DNA of 64,000 nucleotides from a virus, in IMG/VR virus record IMGVR_UViG_3300030382_003905, positions 4,399-68,398 of that record; one strand, written 5' to 3'. Shown in pieces: positions 19,393-44,512 of the stretch (positions are counted from its first letter, which is position 1; each line of letters starts with the position of its first letter). The notes beneath the pieces are model-generated. The model saw only the letters and a list, made by a program, of their open reading frames with translations. It was not told the DNA's origin and made no database searches. The position numbers and the translations under genes were made by a program.

Positions 19393-20520
19393 ATGGATAT
19401 AAAAGTAAAAGAAGTAAGTTTAGTTGAAGAAAAATCTGCCCAAGAAATTGAAGCGGATTTACTAAAAAAACACGAAGAGGAAACGCAAGCGGCTGAACAG
19501 CCTGTAGTTGAAGAGCCTGTAGAAGAAGCTCCTAACACAGAAGAACCTGTAGAGGCCGAAGCACAAGAAAAAACTCCCTCGTCAGAGTTAAATGACGAAG
19601 ACGTTCTTTCATATATTAAAAAAAGATATGATAAAGAAATAGATTCAGTAGATGATTTGTTTACTCAAACCGAGATTAATGAAGATTTACCTGAAGATGT
19701 TTCGGCATATTTTAAGTATAAAAAAGAAACTGGTCGAGGAATAGAAGATTTTGTAGCCTTACAAAAAGACTACACTTCTATGGAAGACGACCAAGTCTTG
19801 GCTAATTATTATGGCGCTACCGAAGATGGGTTAGACGCTATAGATATTCAAGATATTATTGAGGAGAAGTTTATGTTCGATACAGAATTAGATGAACCAA
19901 AAGATATTAAGAAGAAAAAATTAGCCAAAAAACGAGAACTTGCGAAAGCAAAGAAGTTTTTAAATGAACAAAAAGATAAATATAAAGTTCCGCTTGAGTC
20001 AAGTGGGGATGGGTTATCGGAAGATCAGGAAAAAAATCTTAATGCTTATAAGAGTTATAAAGAAGAATCGGAAGCTGTAAATGACATTTTAGCAAAAAGG
20101 CACGATGCTTTTCTTAAAAGAACTAATGAAGTTTTTAACGATGGATTCAAAGGTTTTGAGTACAGCGTAGGAGAAAAGAGTTTTACCTTTAAGCCAGGAG
20201 ATACAGCGGAAGTAAGAAATCGACAATCAGATTTTATGAACTTTGTTTCTAAATTTCAGGACAAAAATGGAGATGTGGTTGATGCAAAAGGATATCATAG
20301 GGCTTTAGCGCCTGCGTTTAATCCTGAAAAATTTGCACAGTTTTTTTACGACCAAGGTGTAGCCAATACTGTTGAAAGTGTAGCTAAGAAGTCTAAAAAC
20401 ATTGATATGGAAGTAAGACCGACTGCTCCAACATACAACAAAGATGGTTTAAAAATCAGAGCTGTAGGAGACACAAGTAGTGGAAGAGGACTCAAAATTA
20501 GAAGTATTAAAAAAGTTTAA
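19393..20520 (+). CDS. capsid scaffolding protein
   Basis: Acidic, helical, directly upstream of MCP; TAACTTTG element just upstream (~19369). Confidence 0.75.
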   Translation: MDIKVKEVSLVEEKSAQEIEADLLKKHEEETQAAEQPVVEEPVEEAPNTEEPVEAEAQEKTPSSELNDEDVLSYIKKRYDKEIDSVDDLFTQTEINEDLPEDVSAYFKYKKETGRGIEDFVALQKDYTSMEDDQVLANYYGATEDGLDAIDIQDIIEEKFMFDTELDEPKDIKKKKLAKKRELAKAKKFLNEQKDKYKVPLESSGDGLSEDQEKNLNAYKSYKEESEAVNDILAKRHDAFLKRTNEVFNDGFKGFEYSVGEKSFTFKPGDTAEVRNRQSDFMNFVSKFQDKNGDVVDAKGYHRALAPAFNPEKFAQFFYDQGVANTVESVAKKSKNIDMEVRPTAPTYNKDGLKIRAVGDTSSGRGLKIRSIKKV

Positions 20521-25181: not shown

Positions 25182-28100
25182 ATGGATATAAAAAGTATTT
25201 CAACTTTTATAAAAGGCAGGATGAATAAGTCTGTGGACGAAAGAATACTTCCGCCAGGCGAGTATGTTGATGCTTTAAATGTAAGGATAGGAGCAACTGA
25301 AACTACAGAAATTGGAGCTGTAGAAAATTCCAAAGGTAATGACATATTAACAGGTCTGCGTTTTAGAGGAGTAGTGCTATCGCCTCAAGCAAGATGTATT
25401 GGAGCGTTAGAAGATGGCATGAATGAAACTATTTATTGGTTTGTTCACGATCCGAACAATCCTCAAGCCCCTAATCCTCCAAGCAGCGCGGATTTAATTG
25501 TTTCTTATAATACAACTACTGAGGTTACCAGGTATCATGTAGAAAGCACCAGTGTTTTAAATTTTAACCCTTCATATCTTATAACAGGAGTAGATTTAAT
25601 TGAAGATTTGTTGTTTTGGACCGATGACTATAATCCTCCTCGTAAAATCAATATAAATTTTGACTATCTAAGTGTAGATTCTAACGGTGTAGATCAAATT
25701 GAAGAAGAAGATATAAGCGTAATAGTAAAACCTCCAGGGTTTCAAGATGCAGCTTTAGTAGCTGTTCCTGATGCGGAAACACTAACATCTCCGAATGTTC
25801 GTTTATTGCAGCTAACAAACCAAGAAAACTATATGGAAGATAAGTTTATTTCTTTTGCATATAGATATAGGTATTTAAACTCTGAATATAGCGCTACCTC
25901 TTTATTCACTTTACCTTCTTTTCAGCCAGGAAGATTTATTTTTAGTTATGAGAATTACTACAATGAGTCTATGCAAAATAGATTTAACGGAGCTGAAGTA
26001 ACTTTTAATACAGGCTCAAAAAGAGTGATAGAAATAGATGTGTTATATAAGTTTTCTAACAGCACTACAATATTTAAAATAGACACTTATAACAAGCAGC
26101 AAGCAGGATGGGGTGATAATCAGGACAGAACTATAGAGTTCTCTAATAGTAAAATATATACAGTTTTAGGTAGTGATGAAATTTTAAGATTATATGACAA
26201 TGTACCTCGTGTAGCTAAAGCTCAAACCATAATGGCTAATCGCTTAGTATATGGAAATTATATAGACGGCTATAATATTTCTGTAGGATCAGCGGAAGGC
26301 GCAAAAATAACACCCAACTATACTGTCTCAGTTTTAGCTGATCAAGTGGGCGTATTCTATATCCCTTATCCTACTTTATCCAGTCAATTGTACGGTATAA
26401 ATCCGTCAAACCCCACTACTGTCCTACAAGCCTCAGCTTTAATTGATTTAGACAGCGTTAAAGATGAACTGAAAAACGGATCGCAGCTGGTTATTAGCTT
26501 ATCCCTAACCTCAGACACAACCCAAGCTCGAGCTCAAGAAAATAGTACGTTGGTATATACAACATGTACAAACACCGCAACACCAGCTCCAGCTTGTAAT
26601 TCATGGACCTCTACAATTAATAGTGGAACTATTGAGGTGGAGTGTTTTGTGGATTTAACTGCAGATTATACAGGAGGCTCAGCGGTATATGATTTTTTAT
26701 TATCAGATGATTTTCAAAATGCTATAGGCACAGTCGAGTCGGTTAATTTCCAGCCCATGGCAACAGCTTCTGCAGGATATTCTTTGACAGACAGTTTTAA
26801 CACTAATGTCTTAACTCAAGGTGCTTTTACCAAGACTATTAGCTCTATAAGCAGTGCTACTAACCAAGAAGGTTTTGGTTTAGACGTAACAGGCCCAGCC
26901 GACACTACTTTCACATTAACGTCTTTGGCGATGGAATCTCAATATGATGATGGGACTTACACAGTAAGCGATTATGAGTATTTTACTATAACAGACGTAA
27001 ATGTAGTTCTTTATACCGATGCTGACCAAGGCAGCTTGCATAGTAATCGTGATTATGAAGTAGGGCTGGTGTATATGGATGAGTATGCCAGAGCATCCAC
27101 TGTATTAGTCTCCCCTAATAATACTAAATTTGTTCCTCCATCTAATAGTATATTAAGAAATAGATTGCAGGTTCTTTTAGAAAGCATACCCCCTTACTGG
27201 GCTACACGATGGAAATATGTAGTTAAACCCAGTACTGATAATTATGAAACTATATATACTAACTTTTTTGTTCAAGCTCCAGATGGGACATATTGGTGTA
27301 AATTAGAAGGAGATAATGCTGAGAAGGTAAAAACAGGAGATTTGCTTTTGGTAAAAAGAGACGCATTAGGGCCAGTTCCTGATGAAGTACAAGTAGAGGT
27401 ATTACAGGCTCAAGCTCAGGCTGAAGATTTTGTGCCAGATGGTGCGATCCCTGATAAGCAGCCACCAGGTTTTTACATGAATATAAAGGCTTTAAGTTTT
27501 ACTCTCGTAGATTCATCTACTCCTACGGTATGGAATTATTCCAGAAAAGATGAAAACCAAAAAATAAAAAGATGTTATAGTGTTAAGAAAATCCCTTTAT
27601 ATTATGATGAGAATTTTACACAAGGTGGGTCTTCAGGGGCTAAAACCAATATAGCTATTCCTGCTGGAACATCTATTACTCTAACCTATCATGCCTGGAG
27701 ATATGCAGGAGGAAGTGATGTAGAATCAATTGACTACCATTATGAAGGAACTTTTACTTCCCCTCAAGATTTTGATAATCTCCGTGACTGGTGGGGTGCT
27801 GCAAATCCTGATTTAAATACAGGAATAAATTCAGGTGAGGGAATTTATAATGTAACCTACCGCCATGCGTTAGGAAATGTATCTTATGCAATAACGATGA
27901 GTGGATCAGATTGTCCCTCCAACTGGAATGACTATGTTCCTCCTTGTATAGATGGGAATGGGAACGGCTGTCCTGGAGCGTGGTGGGGAAGTTTTCAATT
28001 TGCTTCAGATGACCCTTCTGATCCAGATGCCCCTATCTATTTAGCTTGGAGAGTGGGTATAAGAAAAGGAAGCGGACATAACGGATACTCCAGACTTACC

Positions 28101-30269
28101 ATAAGCATTATACAAGGCGGTAGTTTGGTGGTTTTTGAAACTGATCCAACACCAGCAAATGCTGAATTATTTTACGACTCTCCTAAAAGTTATCCAATTA
28201 TCGGAGGTTACCATTCTGTGGGAAGTGTAGTGGCTCAAAGCATAAACACCACACCTATTACTGTAAACCAACTGAATGATTCGACAGCTCAATTTACCGC
28301 CTCTGTATCGGTAGGAGATTTTATTTATAATACCACTGCAAATCCAGTTACAACAGCTACTGTTGTAACAATTAACTCTGCCACAAGCTTAACACTGAAT
28401 GCAAATATTTTTCCAGTAATTGACCAAGCTTATAGTATAGTTCATAACAGTGAAAATGATCAAAACCAAACTCCTACGCAAGCATCTATTATAAACATCC
28501 CATTCATAAATTGCTATTCATTTGGTAATGGAGTAGAGAGTTTTAAAATTTTGGATAAAATTGAGGGGATGTCTATGAATTTAGGAGAAAGGGTTTTAGC
28601 TGTTTCTAATAGTGAATTTAAAGAAGCTGATAGGTTTGCAGGATTAACCTATAGCGGAATATTTAGCGGTCCATCAAATTTTAATAACCTTAATGAATTT
28701 AATTTAGGGTTAGTGAATTTTAAAGACTTAGAGACTTATTTTGGGGAAATTCAAGTGTTACACGCCAGACGAACAGATATTTTAGTGTTACAAGAAGATA
28801 GAATATCTTATGTGTTGGCAGGCAAAAACATATTAACTGATGCTGTTGGGGGAGGAACTGTTACTTCTGTGCCTGAAGTTTTAGGCGAGCAGGTTGCCAG
28901 AGCTGAGGAGTATGGAAATAGTTTTAACCCCGAGAGCTTTGCTGCGTGGGGGAAAGAAATGTTCTTTACTGATACTAAAAGAGGAGCGGTATTAAAGCTT
29001 ACTGGAAGCTCAATGCAAAACGATCAACTAACTGTTATATCCGAACAAGGCATGCGTTCATGGTTTAGGGATGAGTTTTATTTATCACTAACTACACAAA
29101 AATTAGGAGGATATGATCCTTATATGGATGAATATATTTTAGCTACAAATGATGTGTCTGTTCCTTTCCCAACACCGCCTATTCCCTGCGGAACTCTTGT
29201 AGAAGACATAACGTGTGGACAGACTATACTTTTTGATGCAGATGTAGGCAGTGTAATTGGAAATGTTGTAATCACTCTGACTTTAGGCGGTGGATCATGT
29301 TTTTTTAATGCTGTATGGAATGGAGTTACCTATACCACCACACCAAATCCTGCTGTAACGATTCCCCCAGGACCTACTGTTTATACTATTACTATTCCTA
29401 AAACCTCTGCAGCGCCTAACCTGGTGAGTTGTTCATTAGTTCCTTCTGGAGGTGTGTGTGATTTTACAATTTTAGTAGAATGCCCAGTAGAGCTTGAGAT
29501 AACAGTAGTAAAAGTGGTATTAAACGCTCCAGATGATGTTGGAAAAACAATACATGCAGAATACTTTTGGGATAACGGAGTTCAAATTAGTCCTCCTTCC
29601 AGCGATCCAGTAGTTATGAATAATGACCCTACAATTGCTTGTGCGTGGATAGCTCAAACAGGGGTTAGGTCACAAGGAGTATTTCCTTATAATGGTGTAA
29701 ACTTATCTATTCAGACAAACAAAATAGGAAGTGATAATTTTGATTTTAATTTAGCCCAAGATTCAATAAAATGGTTTTCTTCTAACACTTTATACGCTAA
29801 TACTCAAGCAGATATAGCTTCTTTATTAGGTCAGTCTTTAAATTCAGTTACTGTTACTAATGTTGCAGGAAATATTTTTAGAGGAGTACAGGCGAGTGCT
29901 ACCATACCAGATGTTAATGAGTATTTATATTTAATATATGACTTAAGAACTGTAGCATCTCAATATTTATGTTATGATGCAACGTCCTCTCAAGCAGCTT
30001 GTTGTGATTGCATTGTTCCGTGTAAAGGAGTTGCTGCGTCTTTAACAGCAAGCTCTCCTGGGGTAGCTTGCAATCAGCTAATAGATCAAACCTATTATTA
30101 CACAGGTCAAGGAGCACTTCCAGTTGTAGGGGATTTAATTTATACAAGCCTTCTGTGTGCTCAAGGAGCTCCTCCTACTACACTTCAATCAGGGTTTTAT
30201 AAATTTAATACCAACCAAGTTATGGAAGTAAATGTTAACGGGGTTATAATACTAATAAATAATTGTTAA
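25182..30269 (+). CDS. tail nozzle/stabilisation protein (P22 gp10-like/crAss muzzle-like) with Cys-rich C-terminal extension
   Basis: GRMNKSVDERILPPGEYVDALN, LFWTDDYNPPRKIN, NRLVYGNY, FFTDTKRGAVLKL, GGYDPYMDEY. Confidence 0.75.
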   Translation: MDIKSISTFIKGRMNKSVDERILPPGEYVDALNVRIGATETTEIGAVENSKGNDILTGLRFRGVVLSPQARCIGALEDGMNETIYWFVHDPNNPQAPNPPSSADLIVSYNTTTEVTRYHVESTSVLNFNPSYLITGVDLIEDLLFWTDDYNPPRKININFDYLSVDSNGVDQIEEEDISVIVKPPGFQDAALVAVPDAETLTSPNVRLLQLTNQENYMEDKFISFAYRYRYLNSEYSATSLFTLPSFQPGRFIFSYENYYNESMQNRFNGAEVTFNTGSKRVIEIDVLYKFSNSTTIFKIDTYNKQQAGWGDNQDRTIEFSNSKIYTVLGSDEILRLYDNVPRVAKAQTIMANRLVYGNYIDGYNISVGSAEGAKITPNYTVSVLADQVGVFYIPYPTLSSQLYGINPSNPTTVLQASALIDLDSVKDELKNGSQLVISLSLTSDTTQARAQENSTLVYTTCTNTATPAPACNSWTSTINSGTIEVECFVDLTADYTGGSAVYDFLLSDDFQNAIGTVESVNFQPMATASAGYSLTDSFNTNVLTQGAFTKTISSISSATNQEGFGLDVTGPADTTFTLTSLAMESQYDDGTYTVSDYEYFTITDVNVVLYTDADQGSLHSNRDYEVGLVYMDEYARASTVLVSPNNTKFVPPSNSILRNRLQVLLESIPPYWATRWKYVVKPSTDNYETIYTNFFVQAPDGTYWCKLEGDNAEKVKTGDLLLVKRDALGPVPDEVQVEVLQAQAQAEDFVPDGAIPDKQPPGFYMNIKALSFTLVDSSTPTVWNYSRKDENQKIKRCYSVKKIPLYYDENFTQGGSSGAKTNIAIPAGTSITLTYHAWRYAGGSDVESIDYHYEGTFTSPQDFDNLRDWWGAANPDLNTGINSGEGIYNVTYRHALGNVSYAITMSGSDCPSNWNDYVPPCIDGNGNGCPGAWWGSFQFASDDPSDPDAPIYLAWRVGIRKGSGHNGYSRLTISIIQGGSLVVFETDPTPANAELFYDSPKSYPIIGGYHSVGSVVAQSINTTPITVNQLNDSTAQFTASVSVGDFIYNTTANPVTTATVVTINSATSLTLNANIFPVIDQAYSIVHNSENDQNQTPTQASIINIPFINCYSFGNGVESFKILDKIEGMSMNLGERVLAVSNSEFKEADRFAGLTYSGIFSGPSNFNNLNEFNLGLVNFKDLETYFGEIQVLHARRTDILVLQEDRISYVLAGKNILTDAVGGGTVTSVPEVLGEQVARAEEYGNSFNPESFAAWGKEMFFTDTKRGAVLKLTGSSMQNDQLTVISEQGMRSWFRDEFYLSLTTQKLGGYDPYMDEYILATNDVSVPFPTPPIPCGTLVEDITCGQTILFDADVGSVIGNVVITLTLGGGSCFFNAVWNGVTYTTTPNPAVTIPPGPTVYTITIPKTSAAPNLVSCSLVPSGGVCDFTILVECPVELEITVVKVVLNAPDDVGKTIHAEYFWDNGVQISPPSSDPVVMNNDPTIACAWIAQTGVRSQGVFPYNGVNLSIQTNKIGSDNFDFNLAQDSIKWFSSNTLYANTQADIASLLGQSLNSVTVTNVAGNIFRGVQASATIPDVNEYLYLIYDLRTVASQYLCYDATSSQAACCDCIVPCKGVAASLTASSPGVACNQLIDQTYYYTGQGALPVVGDLIYTSLLCAQGAPPTTLQSGFYKFNTNQVMEVNVNGVIILINNC

Positions 30270-35833: not shown

Positions 35834-38800
35834 ATGGAAAAATTAACTAAATTATATAGTGTTTTAAAAAGAGACGGTTTTTATACTAAATCTTTAGATG
35901 AGTTTATAAAACAATTTGAAGACCCTACTTATCAAGATAAAGTATTTAATCTTGTAACTCGAGAGCGACTATTTACTAAAAGCAAAGAAGAGTTTTTAGA
36001 CGCTTATAGCGTAAAAAAAAAAGACGCTACGGTATTTCCTTCGGAAACTGGTTCTTCGGACTCGTCAGAAACTAATGAAATTCCTGAGGCAACTGAAACC
36101 TTTGAGGTTGAGGGCCAAGAAGTTTCTCGCGATGAGTTTATAGCAGAAGAAGATAGGCAGCAAAAAATCCCAGGGATAAACCTTGACCCTTTTCACAGAC
36201 CTAATCAATATAGCGGATCTACTCGACAAGTCAATGTGGCTTACGAACCCCGAGAGAGTGGGAATTTAGAAACCATTTTAGTCCCTACAGGTGCATCAAA
36301 GTTTGAAGAAGCTTTATCCACTATAAACGCCTATCAAATAGATGTAGAAGAAGAAGAAGCAGAAGCTCGTTTAAACTATTTGTTTAATGATTTTGGTTTT
36401 ACTTTTGAACAAGGGGGAGGCACTATCCTTCAAGGATTTGATTCAATTACTGTTACTGCGCCTAATGGGAAATCTAAAGCTTTTAATCTTGATCCTGTAA
36501 TGGGGGATATATTTTCAGGAGAAACCAGTGTTGCAAACGAAATGAGACAATGGATGAGAGCGAATCAAACACAGGAGTCTCGAGAAAAAAATATTATTCT
36601 TTCTAACGATGAGCAGTATAGAATTTTTTATTCTATGCAGGGGGTACAGGAAGCTGTAAATGCTTTGCAAGAAGATGAAAACAACTTTAAAGAAAGACAG
36701 GCCGACTTTCTTACTCAGCGTAATGAATGGATGCAGAAGCAAGAGTTTTATAATACGGTAGACCCAAATAGCTACCAAGCTCTGGAATTTAAAGATGAAT
36801 ATTTAGCACATAAAGAAAAAGGAAAACAAATAGACGCTCTTAAGGATGACTTAATGCTGGATATTCAACACTTTAAGCAATATAGCGATGTTCTTCTTAC
36901 CCAAGCTGGAAAATATGTAGACTATAAAAGCCAAAAATCAGGTGGTTGGGAATTTTATCCAAAACAAATCTGGAATGCTATGATGAATACAGTGGGAGGA
37001 ATAGTATCCACAGTAGCAGGGGCGGCTATAGATGTTGCCGCAGAAGGTTTGGAGATTTTTGGCTTCGGGGTATTCCCAGGAGTCTCAGATTTTCAGGAAT
37101 TTTTAGGGTTTGATAACACCATGGGGCAAAGTCAAGAAGATTTTCAGCAAGACTATTTAAATGTGTTAGAAAACACCAGACCCGAAATATACCAAAACAT
37201 AATTGCTAAATATCCAGGGATAAGGGATGGTAAGATAGAAGACTTTAGTCAAGTAAGAGAGTTTACAAAAAAACTAATGGGAACGGTATCCAGGATAAAA
37301 AACCAAGAAGGGCAGGAGGAGACAGAAGCTTTGTTAGGGAAGGACAGTAGCGGAATTACAGAGGAAGAAGAGATTGCAGAATTAGCTCGAGACCAACATA
37401 TAAAAAGAATTAAAGATATAGTTAAAGGAAGACCTGCATCAGCTAAAGATAAAGATGGGAATCTAATTGGATATGAAGCAAAAAACTGGACGGGACTACG
37501 AAATATATTTACAGACTATTTAGGATTTAGCGATGTATCTGAAGAGGCTGATATGGCGGTGAGAAGTAGAGGTGGATTTGCGGCATTTATATGGAAAGGG
37601 ATATTAGGAGGTATGGAAAGCCTACCTGCATTAGTAGCATTTGGAAGAAAGGGTGTAATGAAAAAACCTAAGAAGTCTTTGAATGCTTTGCAGAAAATGG
37701 CGGCTAATACAAAAGCATATTTACTTTCTCCTCACGGTATGCAAAGATCTTTGCAAATGTCAGGATTTATTGCTGATGGTATAAATAAAGAAATGGAAAA
37801 CAATCCAGCATTTGCCTACGTCTCAGAACAACAAAAGAAAAACATCTTACTCCCTATTGCAGTAACCAGTTCAATTTTAGAGGTAGCAGGTTTTAGGAAT
37901 TTAGAAACAGGAACAAACTTTACAGGAGCTGCTTTAAAAATGGCTTTAGGGCAAACCACAAGAAAAACAACAGCTAAGGAATTTACTCAAATTGTAAGTG
38001 ATGTAGTAACTAATCCTTGGAAAAAAGGAGCATTAAGAATTTTAGGAGCAGCAACTGCTGAATTTGAGACAGGACTCTTACAACAGTTAACTGAATTTGA
38101 AATTAAAAGACTTTATGATTTAGTAAACAATGATGAGTTTAACACTCCTGTAATGTGGAGTAAAGAGTATGGAGGAAAAGTATTAGAAGCAGGATTATTA
38201 GAAGCTATTGGGGGTGCAGCTTTAGGTTCAATTGCAGCAATGCATGAGGCGGCTACCAGTGACAACTTACAGAGCATTAGCAATGATATGTTTGAATTAT
38301 TTAATAGTATAGTAGATGATAAGAATTTTAAAACCATGTATGTTGCTGACTTAAAACAACAAGTTATTACAGGAGAAAGAACACAAGAAGAAGCTGATGT
38401 GTTACTCTATCAGTTTAATCAATTAGCAGGGATTAAAGGTCAGATACCATCCGATATGAATGCGGATAATAAGAAAAAAGCTATAGCACTGCTTTTAAGA
38501 AAACAGGAGTTAGAAAATCAGGTAGAAGGAAAAGACGAGTCTTTAACGCGTAAGCAAAGAGATGAAATAAAAGCTATTGATAATGAAATGGCTAAACTTT
38601 CTGAAGAAAGCATTGAAGACATAGGGGATCTGGAGAAGGGAAGAAAAGGAATAAAAGTAGAGGTTACTGAAGAAGATGCAATAGAAGAACTTAAGCAAGA
38701 AGGGGTGGAAAATCCATCTCCAAAACAAATAAAAGAAAAACAAGATGCCATTTATAAGCGAAGCACAGAGACGCTGGATGCACAAGAATCTACCGAAGAT

Positions 38801-41800
38801 AGCGGCCAGGTGGGAGAAGGCGTATCCCAGCAAGAACCTTCCCAAGAGGGCGAGACCGAAGTCGAGACTGAAGACGGGGCGAAGACCCAGGAGGAAGTAG
38901 ATTTAGATAGAGAAGCGCAAGAAGACGCAGATTTAGAAGAAGTTCTGGGTGACACTAATCAAACAGAAGAAGAGGTTGGTGATAATCTATTTAGAAACAC
39001 TAAAGGAAAAACTATAGACGATACTCAGAATCGTAAAGAAAAAAACACTATATACAGACGAGCTAAAAGAGGAGCTAAGTTTATAAGAAAACTTCTCCCT
39101 GGAGTGTCTATCACTTTATATGACGATAACGATGTATATAACAAAGCGGCTGGTCGTGAAAAAGGATTTAGTGAACCAGGGACATATGATCCAGGGTCTC
39201 GTAAAATAATGATTAACGTATCAGTGGCAGCTAAACTGGGAAGAACAGCTGTGATAGCTCATGAAATAGGTCACGCTGTTCTTGTAGAAACCTTAAAAAA
39301 AGCTGGGGAAAACTCAGTGATGGCAAGGAAAGTTGCTCGTAGATTAATGGAGGCAGTATATAAATCAGCCTACCTTTCTAAAGCAGATAAAGCAAAGATA
39401 GAGGCATTTATAGATGCTGGTAAATACGAAGAAAATATAAGAGATGAAGAGCGTTTTGCAGAGGTGGTTAAAATAATAGCCACACACTTTAACAACTTTA
39501 GTCCAGCCAATAAATCCAAAATCAGAAGATTATTAGATAAATTAATAGATGCTCTTCCCAACAAAGTTAAAGCCGCTTTAAACAGGTTAGGTTTTGATGT
39601 TATGACCGCTACAGATAATGAGATAATTCAATTCTTACAAACTATAGGATCAAAAATAGGAGCAGGAGTAGAGGCAGAAGCAAAAGACGTAAAGGTTTTA
39701 AAGAAAATAGTAAAAGAAGAAAAGGCTGACACTAAGGCTAAAACAAAGCCTAAAACAAAGCCTAAAAAACCGAAGAGTGAAGTAAAAGAAAAAGAAAAGG
39801 CTGACACTAAGCCTAAAAGAAAGCCTAAAAAACGTAAGAATGAGAGGCCTTACAATCAGCCTAAATGGCAGAAATTAGATTTAATAGAGAAAGGGGTTCT
39901 ATTTTTCGCTATTGAAGATTTGGAAAAAAGAATAGCTCTGATAAAACAAAGGTTAGCGGCAGATTTAAGGTCGTTGGAGAAGGGAATCTGGCCAATGCAA
40001 GATTTTGGAATATACAAGAACGAAGCAGAGTTAAGGGAATATGCCCGAGAGCTTATTCGTGAACACAAAGCTGCACTAGCTGAGCTAAAAAAAGGAATTC
40101 TTCCAAAATCAAAAGCTGCGAAGAAAATGGCATTTCAACCACGAGAATGGGGGGAGAAAAAAACGACAGAAGGAGGTTGGAGTAGAAGGTCTAATAAATT
40201 ATACAATGCCTATTTAGCTAAATGGGAGGCTAAACAACTGGCTAACGAGAAAGTTAAAAACAAGCAAGCTAAAAAAAGTTTAGCAAGAAGAAGGCTGGAG
40301 TTAGGGGAGGAGTATCAAATGAGAGGAGACTATATAAACAATCTAAACTTTGACTTACAGCAATTAGAAAAAAAGGCGGCTGAAGTAAACTTATTGGTAA
40401 AGCCTACTTATAATGAAGTCACAGGTCAGCTAAATGGATACCGTTTTACAACTCTGAGTGGAGCACACATTAACCCGATGGAAGTAGAGCAGGGGTGGAA
40501 TAGAAGATCAAATAGAATTGCAGACGGAGCAGACGGAGAGAATTTAATTAAGGCAGGAAACAATATACTTGAAATAGTGAAGATAGCTATTGATAATGGT
40601 TTTACCAACGACACTATAAAAAGATATTTAAAAAGAAAAAATTATAGTACAACAGAAATCAATGAAGCTCTTAAAATAACTACACAGGGAATATTTGAAA
40701 CCCTTCCTAAGAGTTTTGCTAATCTTCCAGGAGGGATAAAATCTGGACTCACATTAATGATGAAGATTAGTAGTAAATATATTCAGCTCACTGACACTAA
40801 CAGGAAGAGTAAAGATTACAATGAGAAGTTAGAAAAGAAAGCGGCTAAAGGAAAGGCAGAATCCACGTGGTATCTTAAGTTAAGAGAAGTGAAAGATGAC
40901 ACCCAAATAATGAATGAAGTGGTGGAGTATGCAAGAACCCTGCCAGAGTATAAAAGCGCAGGGTATAATACTTCCTTAGCTCTTCTTATTGAGCGTGATG
41001 TAATGCTGGCCTTAAACCCAACTCCTAATAACTATAGTGCGCCTCAAGTCAGAGCGTTAACTCAAATTCTCAAAGGTAAAGCGTTTGCTCAATTAGAAAT
41101 AAGACAAGCGCAAAAGTTTTTAAGAAACTTTATGAGATCGGTTTTGCCTCGAGATTTATACGGGAAAGGAGAAGTAATAAGCTTAATAGATAAAGTTAAT
41201 GCTATTAAAACCAAAGAAGAACTTCCTGCCGTAGTAAAAGAAGTGTTAGATGTGGTAACCAGAAAAGCTAATAAAAGCTATATGGCTTCCATCTTTAATA
41301 TTCTTAACAGAAAGACAAGAAAAATTGAATCAGGAAGATATAAAGGAAAGATAATAAGTGAAAACATAAGGCAAAGAATTAAAGATATTAATGCAATGAT
41401 AGCTGACCCAGAGTCTGGATTCAAAGCTATCAAAAAAAGAATAAATGAGCTTTATAAAATAAGAGAAGAATTAGAAGCTAAATCCGATACTATGACTGAC
41501 CAAGAAATGCAACAGCTGGATGACATTGCGGTTGCTTTAATTGTCAATAATGCTTTTATGTCGGAGAATGACAGCCCTAATAAAACTCAAGAATTAATAG
41601 AAGCTTTAACTATTTTAAATGAGTTAGAGGTTCAAGGACGTACTGAGTTTCAAACCCAATTAGAAGAAGCGCGGCTACGCTATCGTAAAAACTTTGCTAT
41701 GGCATTTAAAGAAGTTACAGGGCTAACTATTAATTGGAAAGACTTAACTGAGGAGGAGGCTTATAAGGAGGTGACGGAGCGGGAAAAAGGAAATAACACA

Positions 41801-44512
41801 GAGCTTGGAAGAATTGTAGATAAACAAGAAAATAACGAAGTGTTAACCACTGCAGAGTTTAATAAGTTTAGAGATGCCGTAGAAAAGAAAAGAAAAAGTG
41901 CCTGGGGTGATGCCAGAGCCGATGCTCTGGATAGATTAAAGTTAGAAAACCAAAGCGCACCAGTTAAAGGAGTTGTAAGGAGTGTGAAGAGGAAGATGGC
42001 TGTGGCAGCTAAAGGTATGTTGAGATTTTTAGATCACAATATAGTTGCCACTGCGGAGGATTTATCAGGGTTAATGGATAGAGTATTAAGATCTACTGGT
42101 GACTTATTTGGAGGCCCTCTTATGGAGTTTGTGGCAGATAGTGTTCGCGCCTCTACGCGTGAGTTTAAAAAGCAAAGAAGATTACAGCAAGGAATATTTT
42201 ATGACAAATATGAAGAGATATATGGTAAAAAATGGCGCAAAGCTGTGAGACAAAATTCTGTCATAAACCCTTTAGACATTTATTACAGTAAAAAAGCTCA
42301 TGATATTTTAGTAGAACAAAAGGAAAAAATTAAAAAAAGTAACGCCAGTGAGCGAACTCAAAAGGATTTGATTCTTCACATAGATAAACAAATTCTAAGA
42401 AACCAACTGGAGTTAAGTCAAAACCAAATGTATTATATATATAATCAATTCAAAGACCCAGCACTTAGGTATTTGAATGGAGTGGATGGTGATGCGAGTA
42501 AAACTTTAGATAATACTTTTTCCCCAGACCGTGGTTTAAAAACTATGCTTTTATACGAGTTTGACTCCAAAGGTAATTTAATAGTAGATTCTAATGGAGA
42601 GTTTAAGGTATCCCAACAAGCGGTTCAAGGAGATGCGGCTAATGTCTTAAGTAAAATAGAAGAAGCTTTGGATGATAAAGTAAAAGAGTGGGCAGACTGG
42701 CAAGTAGATGTTTACTATCCCTCTGTATATTCGCGCTATAACGATGTATATAAAAATATATACAGAACAGCTATGCCTCAAAACCAGTATTATGCAGGAA
42801 GATTATTTAGAGAAGCTCCTGAACAGGCAGAGCCAATAACTGTGTTGCCTGTAGATAAAAATGGTGCGTACAACCCTATTGCGCCTCAATCTACCAAAGC
42901 AAGATTAGCCTCTGATAAAGGAATACATTTTGCAGACGGTGATAACGCAATGGTTAACTATATGCGTGATATGGAATATTTTGCAGCCTACGCAGAAACC
43001 ATTAGGGATATACATAAAGTGTTTAGTGATAAGGCTATGAAAGGGGCGATTGCAGAACTCCACGGAGAGAATATAAATGAATACATTAATAATGCTATAA
43101 AGAAAATAGCTAACAAAGGGAGTGAGTTGGGGGATGTCAACGTAAAAATGATCAACGCCTTTAATACAATGTTCTTGTTGTCGCGTCTGGGCGCTAACCT
43201 TACTTTGGTGGCTAAGCAGATGACCTCCTTCCTTACTTATGGTAATGATATAGGATATCTTAATTGGGCGAAATATGCCGCTATCTCTTTAACCAAACTT
43301 TTCAAAACACACAGGGAGATTATGGAAAACTCAATTGTGCTTCAAGATAGATACGGATACACGATAGATGTTAATGGTAAAAGAGTTTACGTTAAATCTA
43401 CACCTATTCAAAAAAACGTAGAGAACTATGCCGAGCAGCAGATGATTAACATGATACCACTGAAGGCACGGGAGGTGGGTATAGAGAATATTATAAAGTA
43501 TTTAATGCTTACTACAATGGTTGGGGATAGGGCTGCAATTTTAATAGGAGGTATACCTAACTATCTTTATTATAAAAGTAAATTTAAAAAGGCAGGTCTA
43601 AGTGAAGAAGAGGCTATCCAGAAAGCTATTGTGAGCTTTGAAAAAGACACCTTAAAAACTCAGCAGTCATACGACTTGCAGGATAAAGATTATTATCAAA
43701 CAGGATATCCTTTCATGAGGGCCTTTAATATGTTCTTAACCACGCCTAAACAATACTTTAGAAGAGAGGTTGTCGCAACCCGAAACCTATACCGAAAACT
43801 AAAAGCCTGGGATGTAAACGCTGGAAGAGGAACATTGACTGAAAACCTAAGAACTTTATTTACCTATCACTTTATAATGCCAATGCTGTTTCAGTATGTA
43901 AGTCAAGGATTCCCAGGGCTTTTAAGAGCCATGACAGACGAAGATAAAGAAGAGCTTAAATGGGCGGCTCTACTTGGAAACCTTAATGCTATCTTTATTT
44001 ATGGGCAAGCTTTGGAGAGCGTGGTAGACTACCTTATACTTGATAAAAGCTATGGATCAGTTCCTCAAAGTCTTCCTATTTTAGAGTCAATATCTAAATT
44101 AACTGAACTATGGAAGCGCGCTCAAAACGCTAAAACAGAGGAAACTCGTGAAAGAAATATGGATAAATTTTTCTTAGAATTAGTTCAAGCTTGGGGACTT
44201 CCTGCTTCTCAAATAAAAAAAATATGGAAGAACTACAGTGAGCTTGGAAGTGCTGATGGGCCTGGAGACGCGATGCTTTTAATTATGGGCTTTAGTGAGT
44301 ATATGAGAAAAAGAGCAGAGAAAAAAGGAGGAGTTAAACTAACCGAGAGAGAAAAAGAATTATATATACCAGGGTATAAGAAAAACAAGGATCGTCTCCA
44401 AAACACTCCCCAATACAAGTTAATGCAGAAAAGAAAAGACCAGGAAAGGGAAAGAAAAAAGAAACTAAGAGAAGATTATTTAAAAAGGACTTATGGCAGA
44501 AAACGTAGATAG
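35834..44512 (+). CDS. giant internal virion/polyvalent protein with zincin-like metallopeptidase domain
   Basis: 2892 aa; GTYDP..IMIN..VIAHEIGH..DEERFAE; helical C-terminal region. Confidence 0.75.
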   Translation: MEKLTKLYSVLKRDGFYTKSLDEFIKQFEDPTYQDKVFNLVTRERLFTKSKEEFLDAYSVKKKDATVFPSETGSSDSSETNEIPEATETFEVEGQEVSRDEFIAEEDRQQKIPGINLDPFHRPNQYSGSTRQVNVAYEPRESGNLETILVPTGASKFEEALSTINAYQIDVEEEEAEARLNYLFNDFGFTFEQGGGTILQGFDSITVTAPNGKSKAFNLDPVMGDIFSGETSVANEMRQWMRANQTQESREKNIILSNDEQYRIFYSMQGVQEAVNALQEDENNFKERQADFLTQRNEWMQKQEFYNTVDPNSYQALEFKDEYLAHKEKGKQIDALKDDLMLDIQHFKQYSDVLLTQAGKYVDYKSQKSGGWEFYPKQIWNAMMNTVGGIVSTVAGAAIDVAAEGLEIFGFGVFPGVSDFQEFLGFDNTMGQSQEDFQQDYLNVLENTRPEIYQNIIAKYPGIRDGKIEDFSQVREFTKKLMGTVSRIKNQEGQEETEALLGKDSSGITEEEEIAELARDQHIKRIKDIVKGRPASAKDKDGNLIGYEAKNWTGLRNIFTDYLGFSDVSEEADMAVRSRGGFAAFIWKGILGGMESLPALVAFGRKGVMKKPKKSLNALQKMAANTKAYLLSPHGMQRSLQMSGFIADGINKEMENNPAFAYVSEQQKKNILLPIAVTSSILEVAGFRNLETGTNFTGAALKMALGQTTRKTTAKEFTQIVSDVVTNPWKKGALRILGAATAEFETGLLQQLTEFEIKRLYDLVNNDEFNTPVMWSKEYGGKVLEAGLLEAIGGAALGSIAAMHEAATSDNLQSISNDMFELFNSIVDDKNFKTMYVADLKQQVITGERTQEEADVLLYQFNQLAGIKGQIPSDMNADNKKKAIALLLRKQELENQVEGKDESLTRKQRDEIKAIDNEMAKLSEESIEDIGDLEKGRKGIKVEVTEEDAIEELKQEGVENPSPKQIKEKQDAIYKRSTETLDAQESTEDSGQVGEGVSQQEPSQEGETEVETEDGAKTQEEVDLDREAQEDADLEEVLGDTNQTEEEVGDNLFRNTKGKTIDDTQNRKEKNTIYRRAKRGAKFIRKLLPGVSITLYDDNDVYNKAAGREKGFSEPGTYDPGSRKIMINVSVAAKLGRTAVIAHEIGHAVLVETLKKAGENSVMARKVARRLMEAVYKSAYLSKADKAKIEAFIDAGKYEENIRDEERFAEVVKIIATHFNNFSPANKSKIRRLLDKLIDALPNKVKAALNRLGFDVMTATDNEIIQFLQTIGSKIGAGVEAEAKDVKVLKKIVKEEKADTKAKTKPKTKPKKPKSEVKEKEKADTKPKRKPKKRKNERPYNQPKWQKLDLIEKGVLFFAIEDLEKRIALIKQRLAADLRSLEKGIWPMQDFGIYKNEAELREYARELIREHKAALAELKKGILPKSKAAKKMAFQPREWGEKKTTEGGWSRRSNKLYNAYLAKWEAKQLANEKVKNKQAKKSLARRRLELGEEYQMRGDYINNLNFDLQQLEKKAAEVNLLVKPTYNEVTGQLNGYRFTTLSGAHINPMEVEQGWNRRSNRIADGADGENLIKAGNNILEIVKIAIDNGFTNDTIKRYLKRKNYSTTEINEALKITTQGIFETLPKSFANLPGGIKSGLTLMMKISSKYIQLTDTNRKSKDYNEKLEKKAAKGKAESTWYLKLREVKDDTQIMNEVVEYARTLPEYKSAGYNTSLALLIERDVMLALNPTPNNYSAPQVRALTQILKGKAFAQLEIRQAQKFLRNFMRSVLPRDLYGKGEVISLIDKVNAIKTKEELPAVVKEVLDVVTRKANKSYMASIFNILNRKTRKIESGRYKGKIISENIRQRIKDINAMIADPESGFKAIKKRINELYKIREELEAKSDTMTDQEMQQLDDIAVALIVNNAFMSENDSPNKTQELIEALTILNELEVQGRTEFQTQLEEARLRYRKNFAMAFKEVTGLTINWKDLTEEEAYKEVTEREKGNNTELGRIVDKQENNEVLTTAEFNKFRDAVEKKRKSAWGDARADALDRLKLENQSAPVKGVVRSVKRKMAVAAKGMLRFLDHNIVATAEDLSGLMDRVLRSTGDLFGGPLMEFVADSVRASTREFKKQRRLQQGIFYDKYEEIYGKKWRKAVRQNSVINPLDIYYSKKAHDILVEQKEKIKKSNASERTQKDLILHIDKQILRNQLELSQNQMYYIYNQFKDPALRYLNGVDGDASKTLDNTFSPDRGLKTMLLYEFDSKGNLIVDSNGEFKVSQQAVQGDAANVLSKIEEALDDKVKEWADWQVDVYYPSVYSRYNDVYKNIYRTAMPQNQYYAGRLFREAPEQAEPITVLPVDKNGAYNPIAPQSTKARLASDKGIHFADGDNAMVNYMRDMEYFAAYAETIRDIHKVFSDKAMKGAIAELHGENINEYINNAIKKIANKGSELGDVNVKMINAFNTMFLLSRLGANLTLVAKQMTSFLTYGNDIGYLNWAKYAAISLTKLFKTHREIMENSIVLQDRYGYTIDVNGKRVYVKSTPIQKNVENYAEQQMINMIPLKAREVGIENIIKYLMLTTMVGDRAAILIGGIPNYLYYKSKFKKAGLSEEEAIQKAIVSFEKDTLKTQQSYDLQDKDYYQTGYPFMRAFNMFLTTPKQYFRREVVATRNLYRKLKAWDVNAGRGTLTENLRTLFTYHFIMPMLFQYVSQGFPGLLRAMTDEDKEELKWAALLGNLNAIFIYGQALESVVDYLILDKSYGSVPQSLPILESISKLTELWKRAQNAKTEETRERNMDKFFLELVQAWGLPASQIKKIWKNYSELGSADGPGDAMLLIMGFSEYMRKRAEKKGGVKLTEREKELYIPGYKKNKDRLQNTPQYKLMQKRKDQERERKKKLREDYLKRTYGRKRR
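38745..38900 (+). CDS. overprinted 51-aa basic protein in the +1 frame of the giant gene
   Basis: MPFISEAQRRWMHKNLPKIAARWEKAYPSKNLPKRARPKSRLKTGRRPRRK*; A-rich leader AAAACAAATAAAAGAAAAACAAG; local GC rise. Confidence 0.7.
   Translation: MPFISEAQRRWMHKNLPKIAARWEKAYPSKNLPKRARPKSRLKTGRRPRRK

Follow-up and report, generated by a model that had tools for sequence, protein, structure and literature searches.

The DNA examined here, a 64,000-nucleotide stretch of viral sequence that we refer to as the window, contains a gene for a giant protein (Table 1). Pfam and PHROG searches with this protein matched no family. A giant homologue in Tenacibaculum phage Gundel_1 is annotated as 'structural protein', one in MW202828.1 as 'reticulocyte binding/rhoptry protein', and a third, from the genome G001, is full-length at 2861 aa. 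The giant gene of the Flavobacterium elemo phages also carries the annotation 'structural protein', and was itself not matched to that of the window. A preliminary description of this DNA had drawn attention to a 51-codon open reading frame (ORF) lying entirely within the giant gene. Its coordinates were confirmed, and the translation agrees letter for letter with the one quoted there. The giant-frame reading across the nested ORF begins DAIYKRSTETLDAQESTEDSGQVGEG, and the contrast between an acidic linker and a strongly basic peptide on the same bases, also pointed out in that description, is borne out by the composition of the two products. The host segment of 53 residues has 17 D/E and 3 K/R (pI 4.1), whereas the nested peptide has 2 D/E and 18 K/R (pI 12.0). 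Immediately upstream, the host-protein motif VEVTEEDAIEELKQEGVENPSPKQIKEKQD is retained in the genome G002 although no nested gene is present there, and we therefore assign this motif to the giant protein rather than to the small gene. The giant homologues in G001 and G002 lack the dual-coding linker segment itself.

Table 1. Features of the nested locus, in positions of the window.
Feature	Coordinates	Strand	Remarks
Host gene, 2892-aa giant protein	35834..44512	+	Final gene of the + strand structural block
Conserved host-protein motif VEVTEEDAIEELKQEGVENPSPKQIKEKQD	38657..38746	+	Just 5' of the nested gene; in L009 and G002
Leader of the nested gene, A-rich, unstructured	38720..38744	+	72% A, A at -3, without a Shine-Dalgarno site; also host codons ...PKQIKEKQ(D)
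Dual-coding stretch in the giant frame, acidic linker	38744..38902	+	Host codons 971-1023; kept open, free to change
Nested small gene, 51 codons + TAG	38745..38900	+	+1 frame (+1 nt shift) of the giant gene

The length of the nested ORF alone is unremarkable. Five ATG-started ORFs of at least 30 codons occur in alternative frames on the same strand of the giant gene, and although the nested ORF is the longest the runner-up reaches 43 codons. It is family membership, not length, that sets this ORF apart from chance. A profile built from 62 non-nested relatives and searched against 1146 six-frame segments of the window gave the nested ORF as its sole match (E 4.6e-20, 67.7 bits), the second-best segment having an E value of 0.53. 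We call this previously unnamed family, defined in this analysis, the MPFKSE-module family. Its core is an N-terminal module of ~40 residues, MPFKSE(A/K)QRRWM..N.P.IA.RWE...LP.R, which begins at the initiator methionine; M1, P2, S5, Q8, P17 and A20 are invariant, F3, R9 and W23 nearly so, and all are present in the window peptide. A second motif, (T/Y)P..(x)LP.(R/K), lies ~5-10 residues past the hairpin and in short forms is followed by a Lys/Arg-rich tail. The window peptide matches here also, with YPSKNLPKR and then a tail of net charge about +9; the medians are +8 for free and +9 for nested copies. Alignment with free relatives and AlphaFold2 divide the peptide into a conserved helical hairpin module (residues 1-27), an LPKR motif (32-35) and a disordered Arg/Lys/Pro tail. 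The AlphaFold2 model, made from a 61-row alignment, predicts a helix-Pro-helix hairpin with helices at 6-15 and 17-26, pLDDT being 83-93 over residues 1-20 and 60-70 in the tail, which has neither helix nor strand.

The family is large, with at least 367 relatives on viral contigs and 3741 cluster representatives at E<=1e-3 (1513 at E<=1e-10), and among the best 150 representatives the motif begins at residue 1 in 141. The module takes three forms, a free protein of 40-100 aa with a basic tail, the N-terminus of larger proteins, and an out-of-frame gene nested in structural genes. Streptomyces phage FlowerPower (gene 48), phage 023Pt_psg01 and phage C75C1 each have a free gene that begins MPYKSDKQRRYMH.../MPFKSEKQRRYLY..., which bears out the likeness to standalone small phage proteins noted in the preliminary description. 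Searches of Pfam returned nothing at E<=1 for the nested peptide and nothing at E<=10 for three free relatives, the PHROG search with the window peptide gave no match, and no relative in Pfam, PHROG or the PDB yields a function for its family, which at >3700 clusters is without Pfam entry, structure or assigned function. The nearest named cluster to the peptide in the ESM Atlas is labelled DUF3008 (score 0.85, a lead only), and two family members, P0004 and L045, match phrog_1375 weakly (E 0.003-0.004). Like the module family, DUF3008 (PF11450), phrog_1375 and phrog_16759 are small, basic, viral and of unassigned function; membership of DUF3008 was rejected on the Pfam results given above.

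For a spurious ORF the preliminary description had expected no standalone homologues and no preserved ATG or ORF in the +1 frame of homologous genes. Free homologues are abundant, and ATG and ORF are kept in L009, in the elemo phages and in MW202828.1. The ORF is intact in L005, L006, L095 and L096, intact from the contig start to the stop codon in L007, and kept up to the contig end in L009, while 68 elemo phage records and MW202828.1 hold diverged nested variants. The giant proteins of the window and L009 are 28% identical over 882 aligned residues, against 63% for the window peptide and the small ORF of L009 (tblastn).

A check for suppressed synonymous variation, proposed in the same description, bears on which of the two frames is selected. 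Across the three or four near-identical relatives available within the clade, 11 sites of the nested ORF vary; 8 are small-frame third positions, synonymous for the peptide, and the other 3 change it (K>R, R>K, S>P). Only 3/11 are synonymous for the giant protein, 8/11 altering a host residue. The flanks (36500-38744) show the opposite pattern, with 165/267 variable sites at host third positions (Fisher p 0.0025). Counted within each of three host-gene families and summed, the minimum number of changes is 27/20/47 at small-frame positions 1/2/3, and amino-acid identity in the small versus the host frame is 0.85 vs 0.72, 0.67 vs 0.38 and 0.77 vs 0.64; such deep comparisons blend evolution before and after nesting, a problem that the within-family counts lessen. 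The corresponding host frame is open across the whole ORF in 1/54 free copies and closed in 53/54, because TTT-AAR yields TAA. At that site the nested copies use TTC-AAR, TTT-ATA or TTC-GTG. The rise in GC content reported earlier for this interval is real (0.547 in 38750-38899, vs ~0.27-0.45 for the other 150-nt windows of the giant gene), but it does not stand as evidence of foreignness, since it is a general signature of nested copies: relative to their own locus these have a median GC difference of +0.106 (16/17 above zero), against -0.038 for free copies (10/54 above zero). Codon-position counts at shallow and deep divergence, on which selection is judged here, show purifying selection on the small frame, with the host frame no more than kept open.

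These counts also bear on two other accounts of the locus. The conserved island might be a nucleic-acid element, such as a signal for packaging, regulation or recombination, or the ORF might be due to chance, and we regard either as extremely improbable. The segment does form a conserved island of DNA amid hypervariable linker stretches, and assemblies break around it, L007 and L009 ending inside and Logan contigs being fragmented there. What is conserved within the family, however, is the amino-acid sequence, while synonymous sites turn over and codons differ between lineages, and searches for an Rfam match, for excess folding energy and for promoter or terminator patterns were all negative; a chance ORF is ruled out by the profile match. 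Alternatively, a once-free small gene may have been swallowed by an expanding giant linker and persist as a recognisable but untranslated fossil, with only the giant frame mattering. Capture is plausible given that free copies adjoin homologous giant genes, the ORF is of ordinary length, and its translation is deduced from sequence alone. A fossil should nevertheless decay in its own frame and change at host third positions, and the reverse is seen at shallow and deep divergence alike. Even where the giant proteins are only 28-50% identical, the ATG and stop codon are preserved together with the leader or Shine-Dalgarno site, which makes the fossil account very unlikely. A single family match was found per record in 15/15 records, three of them estimated complete (G000, G011 and G013), and in each of these three the nested copy is the sole family copy, which also speaks against a fossil.

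The A-rich initiation region with A at -3 described previously is confirmed over the 25 nt before the ATG (72% A), an A content matched by only 0.2% of the 25-mers of the giant gene, and in the predicted minimum-free-energy fold this leader is unpaired. The genes of the window are likewise without Shine-Dalgarno sites and have A/T-rich leaders. By initiation-context score the nested ATG ranks 7 of 185 internal ATGs, under a scoring matrix that is weak. Where the phage does use Shine-Dalgarno sites, relatives carry AGGAGG 5-8 nt before the ATG (L057, L083) or GGAGG (L016), whereas such a site would be expected at 0.4% of positions in L057, 0.7% in L083 and 2% in L016. No promoter-like site was found near the nested ORF, so that its expression depends on the transcript of the giant gene. 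One metatranscriptome run gave contigs over 38710-38965 only, which shows neither transcription nor translation. We suggest that ribosomes would initiate independently at ATG 38745 on the giant gene's late mRNA to make the peptide, the A-rich unstructured leader serving a Bacteroidota-type initiation without Shine-Dalgarno pairing, as in the other genes of the phage. Both the timing and the quantity of peptide synthesis would thereby follow those of a low-copy virion protein.

Substitutions at its own third positions, the open host frame, the GC rise confined to nested copies, the A-rich or Shine-Dalgarno leader and the sole-copy status together indicate a separately translated, selected gene. 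The preliminary description had read the ORF as a hidden second gene, and both the profile match and the small-frame third-position change favour this over noise. We consider it probable that the same 156 bases encode two proteins, the nested gene being real, selected and separately expressed.

The relative frame is the same wherever nesting occurs, in 14/14 nested loci and 69 GenBank phage records, and the structural genes that harbour the nested small gene are of at least four kinds. In sister lineages the small gene lies 1-10 nt past the stop codon of the giant gene (10 nt after that of the giant homologue in G001) or within the scaffold-position gene, and on the tree the nested state changes at least three times on well-supported branches. 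The small gene, with thousands of free homologues, is the older reading, and the linker piece of the giant the younger. The case is one of an existing gene repeatedly engulfed by, or inserted into, a linker, and not of a new gene arising within an old one. The constant +1 relationship may be explained by codon complementarity, as Glu-rich linkers (GAR) would be read one base later as Lys/Arg codons (ARN). An acidic linker would then be the one place and frame able to take an overlaid basic tail.

This frame rule has a second possible explanation. Ribosomes starting at ATG 38745 might slip -1 into the giant frame to give the MPF module joined to the C-terminal ~1870 residues, the 51-aa peptide being a non-shifted by-product. 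In favour of this, a shift from the small frame to the host frame is always one of -1, and many fused forms carry the module at residue 1. The scaffold-position gene of L078 starts in frame with the module and its body has no start of its own, and a GGGTTTT heptamer common to L078 and L087 is fittingly placed. Against this, an X_XXY_YYZ heptamer is missing from the window ORF and from 11/16 other nested copies listed, and is conserved in no host family. No stable RNA structure is predicted (z -0.54), and a programmed -1 frameshift cassette was on these grounds rejected for the window ORF. The stop codon and basic tail are retained in every complete nested copy, and the frame rule is accounted for by the Glu versus Lys/Arg complementarity. 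We therefore think frameshifting very improbable.

As to the function of the peptide, both free and fused copies of the module have terminase, portal and scaffold-position genes as neighbours, and in the fused forms translation is coupled to that of the portal gene. The module is found at the N-terminus of proteins with InPase, DUF5661, lysozyme, NUDIX plus Mu-like protease, LigD phosphoesterase, HU and SET domains, although most fused partners have no recognised domain (informative PHROG families, 0 among 52; Pfam families, only 5, each found in 1-2 of 89). Heading lysozyme, pyrophosphatase-like, NUDIX, ligase-type, HU and SET proteins, it is a candidate virion-loading label; InPase-bearing polyvalent proteins are predicted to be packaged in the virion and injected, according to Iyer et al. 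2017 (PMC5512222). The preliminary description had suggested that the peptide may chaperone or neutralise the giant protein or DNA during packaging; these varied fusions and neighbours point to a more general head-associated or packaging/injection role rather than a chaperone specific to the giant protein. A head-associated, packaged or injected DNA-binding peptide would be the likeliest role of the nested product, and DNA binding by its basic tail is plausible. Tentatively, the hairpin may be a docking or address module for the head interior, the portal or DNA, and the free form a small peptide that binds DNA and is packaged, perhaps even co-injected.

The copy in FlowerPower sits between a 'peptidase' and a holin, a position compatible with lysis as well as with a head function. 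The peptide might then be a small cationic envelope-acting peptide or endolysin accessory, nested as the o-spanin gene Rz1 is. A few proteins fuse the module to GH24 and tail-type lysozyme domains, and the embedded, adjacent and separate architectures resemble those of spanins (PMC6139136). The 51-aa peptide, however, contains no cysteine, and thus no lipobox, and no hydrophobic (signal or membrane) segment. Most copies adjoin the head genes named above, with fused forms coupled to the portal gene, and the HU, NUDIX, InPase, ligase-type and SET partners are not envelope-directed. We consider a lysis role very improbable.

Taken further, the head-associated reading would make the MPFKSE module a widespread address label by which proteins are loaded into the heads of tailed phages and delivered along with the DNA, the free basic form a packaged peptide acting at DNA ends or condensing DNA, and the small gene with its giant virion-protein or scaffold-position genes a second 'Rz/Rz1-like' system that switches between separate, fused and nested states. 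This switching would recur because reading an acidic linker from the next base yields a ready-made basic tail. We think this extended proposal unlikely as a whole. If it were true, nesting would fix the dose of the peptide to its giant cargo protein, whose acidic linker the peptide may bind.

Gene callers miss the nested small gene. It is unannotated in the three GenBank records whose feature tables were checked, and in the 40 records listed, of 69, the small-gene match lies only under the feature of the giant gene. The GenBank records with a nested copy include a cultured Flavobacterium phage-host system allowing direct testing. Simple sequence signatures by which further cases may be found are a GC island within a gene, variability reversed between codon positions, and an internal leader that is A-rich or of Shine-Dalgarno type.

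Out-of-frame nested genes are textbook examples in tiny viruses. For large tailed phages essentially a single well-studied example is known, Rz/Rz1, with Rz1 in the +1 frame of Rz. These two-component spanin genes of lambda and its relatives occur in embedded, overlapped and separated architectures, as described by Kongari et al. 2018 (PMC6139136), and are the closest analogy to the nested gene. In both systems a small late gene is read in another frame within a bigger phage gene, and the gene pair or family is nested in certain phages but separate in others. Unlike the o-spanin Rz1, the nested peptide has no lipobox cysteine or membrane segment; its host is a giant virion protein, or a scaffold-position gene in relatives, and not an inner-membrane spanin; the neighbourhood is one of head morphogenesis, not lysis; and the small gene also serves as the N-terminal domain of many other proteins.

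A second comparison is with the MuF and SPP1 gp7-type head-incorporation domains, also portable modules encoded beside the portal gene and fused to varied enzymatic domains (InPase, NUDIX, lysozyme and others) predicted to be packaged and injected (PMC5512222). The analogy is one of how the module might work only, as there is no sequence or fold relationship, a hairpin of ~40 residues stands against a full domain, and packaging of MPFKSE members is hypothetical. Overprinted viral genes, arising de novo and out of frame, are reviewed in Pavesi 2021 (PMC8227390) and Sabath et al. 2012 (PMC3494269). Like such genes, the nested locus has one DNA stretch with two kept frames, shifted GC and composition, and one disordered reading. 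Unlike those de novo genes, the small gene here is old and the linker reading of the giant, absent from the G001 and G002 giants, young, making this a case of the less-discussed direction of overprinting, in which the linker of a big gene grows over an existing small gene.

The nested ORF was initially described as encoding a 51-residue, strongly basic peptide wholly inside the gene for the 2892-aa structural protein, whose own frame reads an acidic linker there, in an interval of raised GC content. All of these features were recovered. Translation of the ORF gave a peptide identical to the one quoted, and its frame lies one base 3' of the host frame (that of the giant gene), across host codons 971-1023. 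The nested reading has 18 Lys/Arg and two Asp/Glu (pI 12.0), and the host reading of the same bases has 17 Asp/Glu and three Lys/Arg in 53 residues (pI 4.1). GC content reaches 0.547 at 38750-38899, the top value within the giant gene. The giant gene has five alternative-frame ORFs of 30 codons or more on the same strand, and the nested ORF is the longest, the runner-up having 43 codons; on its own this length is no proof of a gene. We also observed a 100-codon antisense ORF (38543..38845, minus strand) that overlaps the nested gene. An ORF of this kind is to be expected on the pyrimidine-rich strand opposite purine-rich coding sequence, and nothing indicates that it is a gene. A blastn search with 3 kb around the nested ORF against GenBank phages gave no match.

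Features of the window, and groups of host genes (by BLAST) that contain nested copies of the small gene
Feature	Position	Strand	Description
Giant gene	35834..44512	+	2892-aa structural protein
Nested small gene	38745..38900	+	ATG-started, 51-residue translation, +1 frame of giant gene
Host-protein motif (…EDAIEELKQEGVENPSPKQIKEKQD)	38657-38746	+	Just upstream of nested gene
Scaffold-position gene	19393-20520	+	375 aa; between portal gene and 483-aa structural gene
Very large ORF	5765-11746	+	1993 aa; no PHROG match
Very large ORF	25182-30269	+	1695 aa; matches phrog_14478 (virion structural protein)
Host group (a)			Window-type giant protein: window, L005-L007, L009
Host group (b)			Giants of 2500-2600 aa: L012, L057, L083; C-terminal phrog_11358 in common with L016
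Host group (c)			L018; phrog_32588
Host group (d)			~400-aa protein, seven loci: L051, L063, L076, L078, L082, L086, L087

Pfam and PHROGs, searched with the peptide and with the giant protein, gave nothing usable. The preliminary description had pointed to a likeness to standalone small phage proteins, and this was borne out by tblastn against GenBank phages, in which the N-terminus of the peptide was found to open small annotated genes. The first 23-25 residues match at 52-61% identity across a set comprising Streptomyces phage FlowerPower and six relatives, phage 023Pt_psg01 and phage C75C1. Scanning IMG/VR with a pattern drawn from five aligned sequences identified at least 367 confirmed relatives, the best 80 of which were used for analysis of the loci. 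Using a 32-column profile against 1.84 billion cluster representatives we obtained 3741 matches at E<=1e-3 and 1513 at E<=1e-10. The module begins at residue 1 in 141 of the 150 best matches, which are up to 100 aa (61), 101-300 aa (37), 301-500 aa (44) or more than 500 aa (8) in length. A profile of 62 non-nested members (L065 and duplicates excluded), searched against 1146 six-frame segments of the window, matches the nested ORF alone with an E value of 4.6e-20, the second-best segment having 0.53.

Within the module alignment M1, P2, S5, Q8, P17 and A20 are invariant and F3, R9 and W23 near-invariant. A second short motif in the family, ...LP.(R/K)..., is present in the window peptide as NLPKR. 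AlphaFold2 (61 rows) predicts a helix-Pro-helix hairpin, with helices at residues 6-15 and 17-26 and a pLDDT of 83-93 over residues 1-20, followed by a tail with no predicted secondary structure (pLDDT 60-70). No named family or solved structure was matched in PDB sequence, Foldseek and ESM Atlas searches. The family profile found only a 13-residue chance match to SH3BGRL proteins among PDB sequences; Foldseek gave no match in the PDB and uncharacterised family members only in BFVD; and the ESM Atlas returned unnamed viral clusters, with DUF3008 at 0.85 as a lead only. Literature searches, with the supplementary domain lists of Iyer et al. outside their scope, found no publication on the family.

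The best 80 IMG/VR loci contain 81 family copies, 78 of which (77 loci) were located by regular expressions, with three loci that use GTG or other starts assigned by hand. Free small ORFs account for 54 copies, a further 13 form the N-terminus of ORFs of 150-1073 aa, and 14 lie wholly inside an ORF in another frame, taken as a stop-to-stop ORF of at least 150 codons. The nested copy of L021 is borderline, as its host ORF has just 184 codons and starts at the small gene. The host frame is the small frame +2, placing the small gene +1 to its host, in 14 of 14 nested loci, the window, L005 and L006. Among 54 free copies (51 from IMG/VR and three GenBank genes, the hand-checked three excluded), the host-equivalent frame is open across the whole gene in one and across the first 28 codons in two; the other shifted frame is open across the first 28 codons in 42. 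Since the host-equivalent frame is so seldom open in free copies, the frame rule is not what composition would predict. The usual Phe-Lys pair, TTT-AAR, makes TAA in the host frame, and nested copies use TTC-AAR, TTT-ATA or TTC-GTG. Acidic linkers are rich in GAR, which read one base later would become ARN (Lys, Arg, Asn, Ser), suggesting that a basic tail and an acidic linker can share DNA in the +1 relation only.

The small-frame third position is the host first position. Nucleotide entropy at small-frame positions 1/2/3 was 0.74/0.57/1.47 for distinct free copies and 0.70/0.61/1.02 for distinct nested copies; in the latter the host third position is the least variable, the reverse of the expectation from host-only selection. 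Minimum changes within families, counted over the first 27 codons at the same positions, were 6/3/8 for the window, L006 and L009, 12/7/18 for L012, L057 and L083, and 9/10/21 for the seven ~400-aa hosts, summing to 27/20/47. In each of these families the small frame had a higher mean amino-acid identity than the host frame (0.85 versus 0.72, 0.67 versus 0.38 and 0.77 versus 0.64). Suppressed synonymous variation in the giant gene had been put forward as a check, and of the 11 variable sites in the ORF among the window and its close relatives L005, L006 and L007, only three are silent for the giant protein. Eight of the 11, all of them host first positions, leave the peptide unchanged, the remaining three being K>R, R>K and S>P. 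Within the flank at 36500-38744 host third positions hold 165 of 267 variable sites. The excess of host first positions in the ORF against all flanks, which include the noisy, indel-rich stretch 39501-40500, gave p 0.0025 in a Fisher test.

Contigs from three marine metagenome runs (three studies) contained one difference in the ORF, 38828 C>G, which leaves the peptide unchanged and replaces Q with E in the giant. Immediately upstream of the ORF one run had six differences, and immediately downstream there were eight, in one or two runs; a scan of metagenome contigs found two extra loci with ORFs identical to known alleles. The ORF forms a conserved island, with hypervariable linker on either side. 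We also observed that the IMG/VR contigs L007 (position 1) and L009 (position 5131) end inside the small ORF, and that Logan contigs of three runs (X4-X6) are broken around it, at 38500-39060 of the window, with holes in the flanks. The island probably splits the assembly graphs of mixed strains.

The GC content of nested copies exceeds that of their own locus (median +0.106, above zero in 16 of 17); for free copies the value is -0.038, with 10 of 54 above zero. As the rise is limited to nested copies, it reflects the price that an AT-rich genome pays for holding both frames open, and a foreign origin of the GC island was ruled out on the same grounds. The A-rich initiation region noted in the preliminary description is present: the 25 bases 5' of the ATG are 72% A, with A at -3, a leader equalled by merely 0.2% of the 25-mers of the giant gene. 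The 41 long ORFs of the window have A/T-rich leaders and no Shine-Dalgarno sites. For loci of Shine-Dalgarno-using hosts, AGGAGG is found 5-8 nt 5' of the nested ATG in L057 and L083, and GGAGG in L016, where such sites are expected at 0.4%, 0.7% and 2% of positions in the respective genes; the leader of L012 has AAGGAA only. AT-rich lineages have an A-rich leader in place of Shine-Dalgarno. Measured against the 25-mers of its host gene, the leader is among the top 0.2-3.3% in the window, L005, L006, L009, L018, L078, L086, L087 and L012 (0.9%), and in the top 6-17% in L051, L063, L076 and L082. The window's ORF has no X_XXY_YYZ heptamer, and the nested copies conserve none.

Explanations at the RNA level were rejected: Rfam gave no match, folding energy was not in excess (z -0.54), and neither promoter nor terminator patterns were found. 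In metatranscriptome run X19, contigs with a depth of about 21 cover only 38710-38965 within the 1 kb examined. These may derive from related phages sharing this island alone, or from DNA in the library, and are no evidence of expression.

Relatives of the giant gene place the small gene in two positions. Among the best 80 loci the closest free copies to the window peptide (L008, L010, L013 and L015; 55-64% identity) start 1-10 nt past the stop codon of a giant ORF, at least 1662 codons of which are visible. The giants of L010 and L015 are homologous to that of the window, and the giant of L013 to the host in L018. L010 comes from record G001, in which the window's giant has a full-length homologue of 2861 aa (30% identical over residues 8-910 and 997-1281) that contains no nested gene. 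The motif just upstream of the nested gene is kept in L009, whose giant is otherwise 28% identical. A second record, G002, keeps it as ...AIE.LK..G...P...QIK.K..., followed by unrelated sequence and no nested gene. These two records and the adjacent free copies indicate that the same gene lies inside the giant in some lineages and directly after it in their sisters. A tree was built from 42 columns of 77 distinct module sequences, with L005, L065 and duplicates excluded; many of its forks are unresolved. In this tree the window groups with L006 and L009 (98/81), beside the free copies of L008, L010 and L013, and the nested state requires eight changes, at least three on well-supported branches. 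A profile search found exactly one family copy in each of 15 records. In G000, G011 and G013, which CheckV rates complete, this sole copy is the nested one; the other twelve are fragments, for which the count means less.

The scaffold-position protein of the window (encoded between the portal gene and the phrog_13704 structural gene) matches Flavobacterium phages of the 'elemo' group and MW202828.1. These phages carry a diverged module variant in the +1 frame of giant structural genes, at host residues of about 1215 and 866, with a profile E of about 1e-4 (small search) and the same ...KETP..KSLP.KV... ending. The variant is present in 68 of 68 elemo records and in MW202828.1. Among the 40 of these 69 records listed, the match falls under the feature of the giant gene only, and no separate CDS is annotated in the three GenBank feature tables examined. 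Unlike the main family, the variant (L091:35334-35459; L088:37075-37203) has two cysteines in the hairpin region (…KACY…NPKWDCKKW…) and may be a disulfide- or metal-stabilised version.

The host gene of group (d) sits between the portal gene (phrog_6547) and the phrog_13704 structural gene; the portal and 483-aa genes of the window belong to these two PHROGs as well. The scaffold-position gene of the window is homologous to this host (36% identity over 283 aa, E 8e-55) and has no nested copy inside; the two other very large ORFs of the window likewise contain no family copy. Fused forms lie directly 3' of portal genes with a gap of -1 to +3 nt (L017, L043, L068, L047), and free copies are found between terminase and portal (L014, L029) or after the portal (L046, L053, L058). 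Many fused members of 330-490 aa (P0013-P0155) also directly follow portal genes; they have a glycine-rich variable middle, a conserved C-terminal ending, …GGLANLFRVKN, and no PHROG or Pfam family. In L078 (4930-5129) the ~400-aa scaffold-position gene starts in the reading frame of the nested module, making a 67-aa ORF, and the host body has a stop seven codons 5' of the module ATG and no start of its own. This locus is without about 45 codons that its relative L087 (2445-2775) has, and the two have in common a GGGTTTT heptamer, placed so that slippage by -1 would fuse the module to the body of the host. An indel in the assembly, internal initiation or genuine frameshifting may account for the arrangement.

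In nearly all loci read the neighbourhood is that of head morphogenesis, and the module is portable, starting at residue 1 in 104 of 112 further long relatives. Precomputed Pfam domains among the 120 relatives listed were DUF5661 (7), InPase (6) and one each of GH24 lysozyme, tail lysozyme, NUDIX with Mu-like protease, LigD phosphoesterase, HU, SET, DnaJ and others; the majority of the 120 have no Pfam domain. Longer family members gave next to no assignments in tallies of PHROG (52 members) and Pfam (89 members). Iyer et al. 2017 (PMC5512222) argue for packaging and injection of phage polyvalent proteins that bear InPase, and for MuF-type head domains as carriers of such effectors. Nesting in, or coupling to, low-copy virion genes and the portal gene suggests low-copy synthesis. 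On the basis of this context, the portability, the argument of Iyer et al. and the low-copy coupling we tentatively favour a docking module for the head interior, portal or DNA, the free form being a putative packaged DNA-binding peptide. The main functional rival is a lysis-related role for the small gene. FlowerPower is an exception in its neighbourhood, with the gene between 'peptidase' and holin; the peptide has no cysteine and so fails the defining feature of an o-spanin.

The sequence comparisons indicate that the nested ORF is a real, selected and previously unannotated nested gene. The nearest known arrangement is Rz/Rz1, for which embedded, overlapped and separated architectures are described (PMC6139136). 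Compared with classical overprinting (PMC8227390, PMC3494269), the polarity here runs the other way, with an old small gene and a new stretch of the large gene overlapping it.
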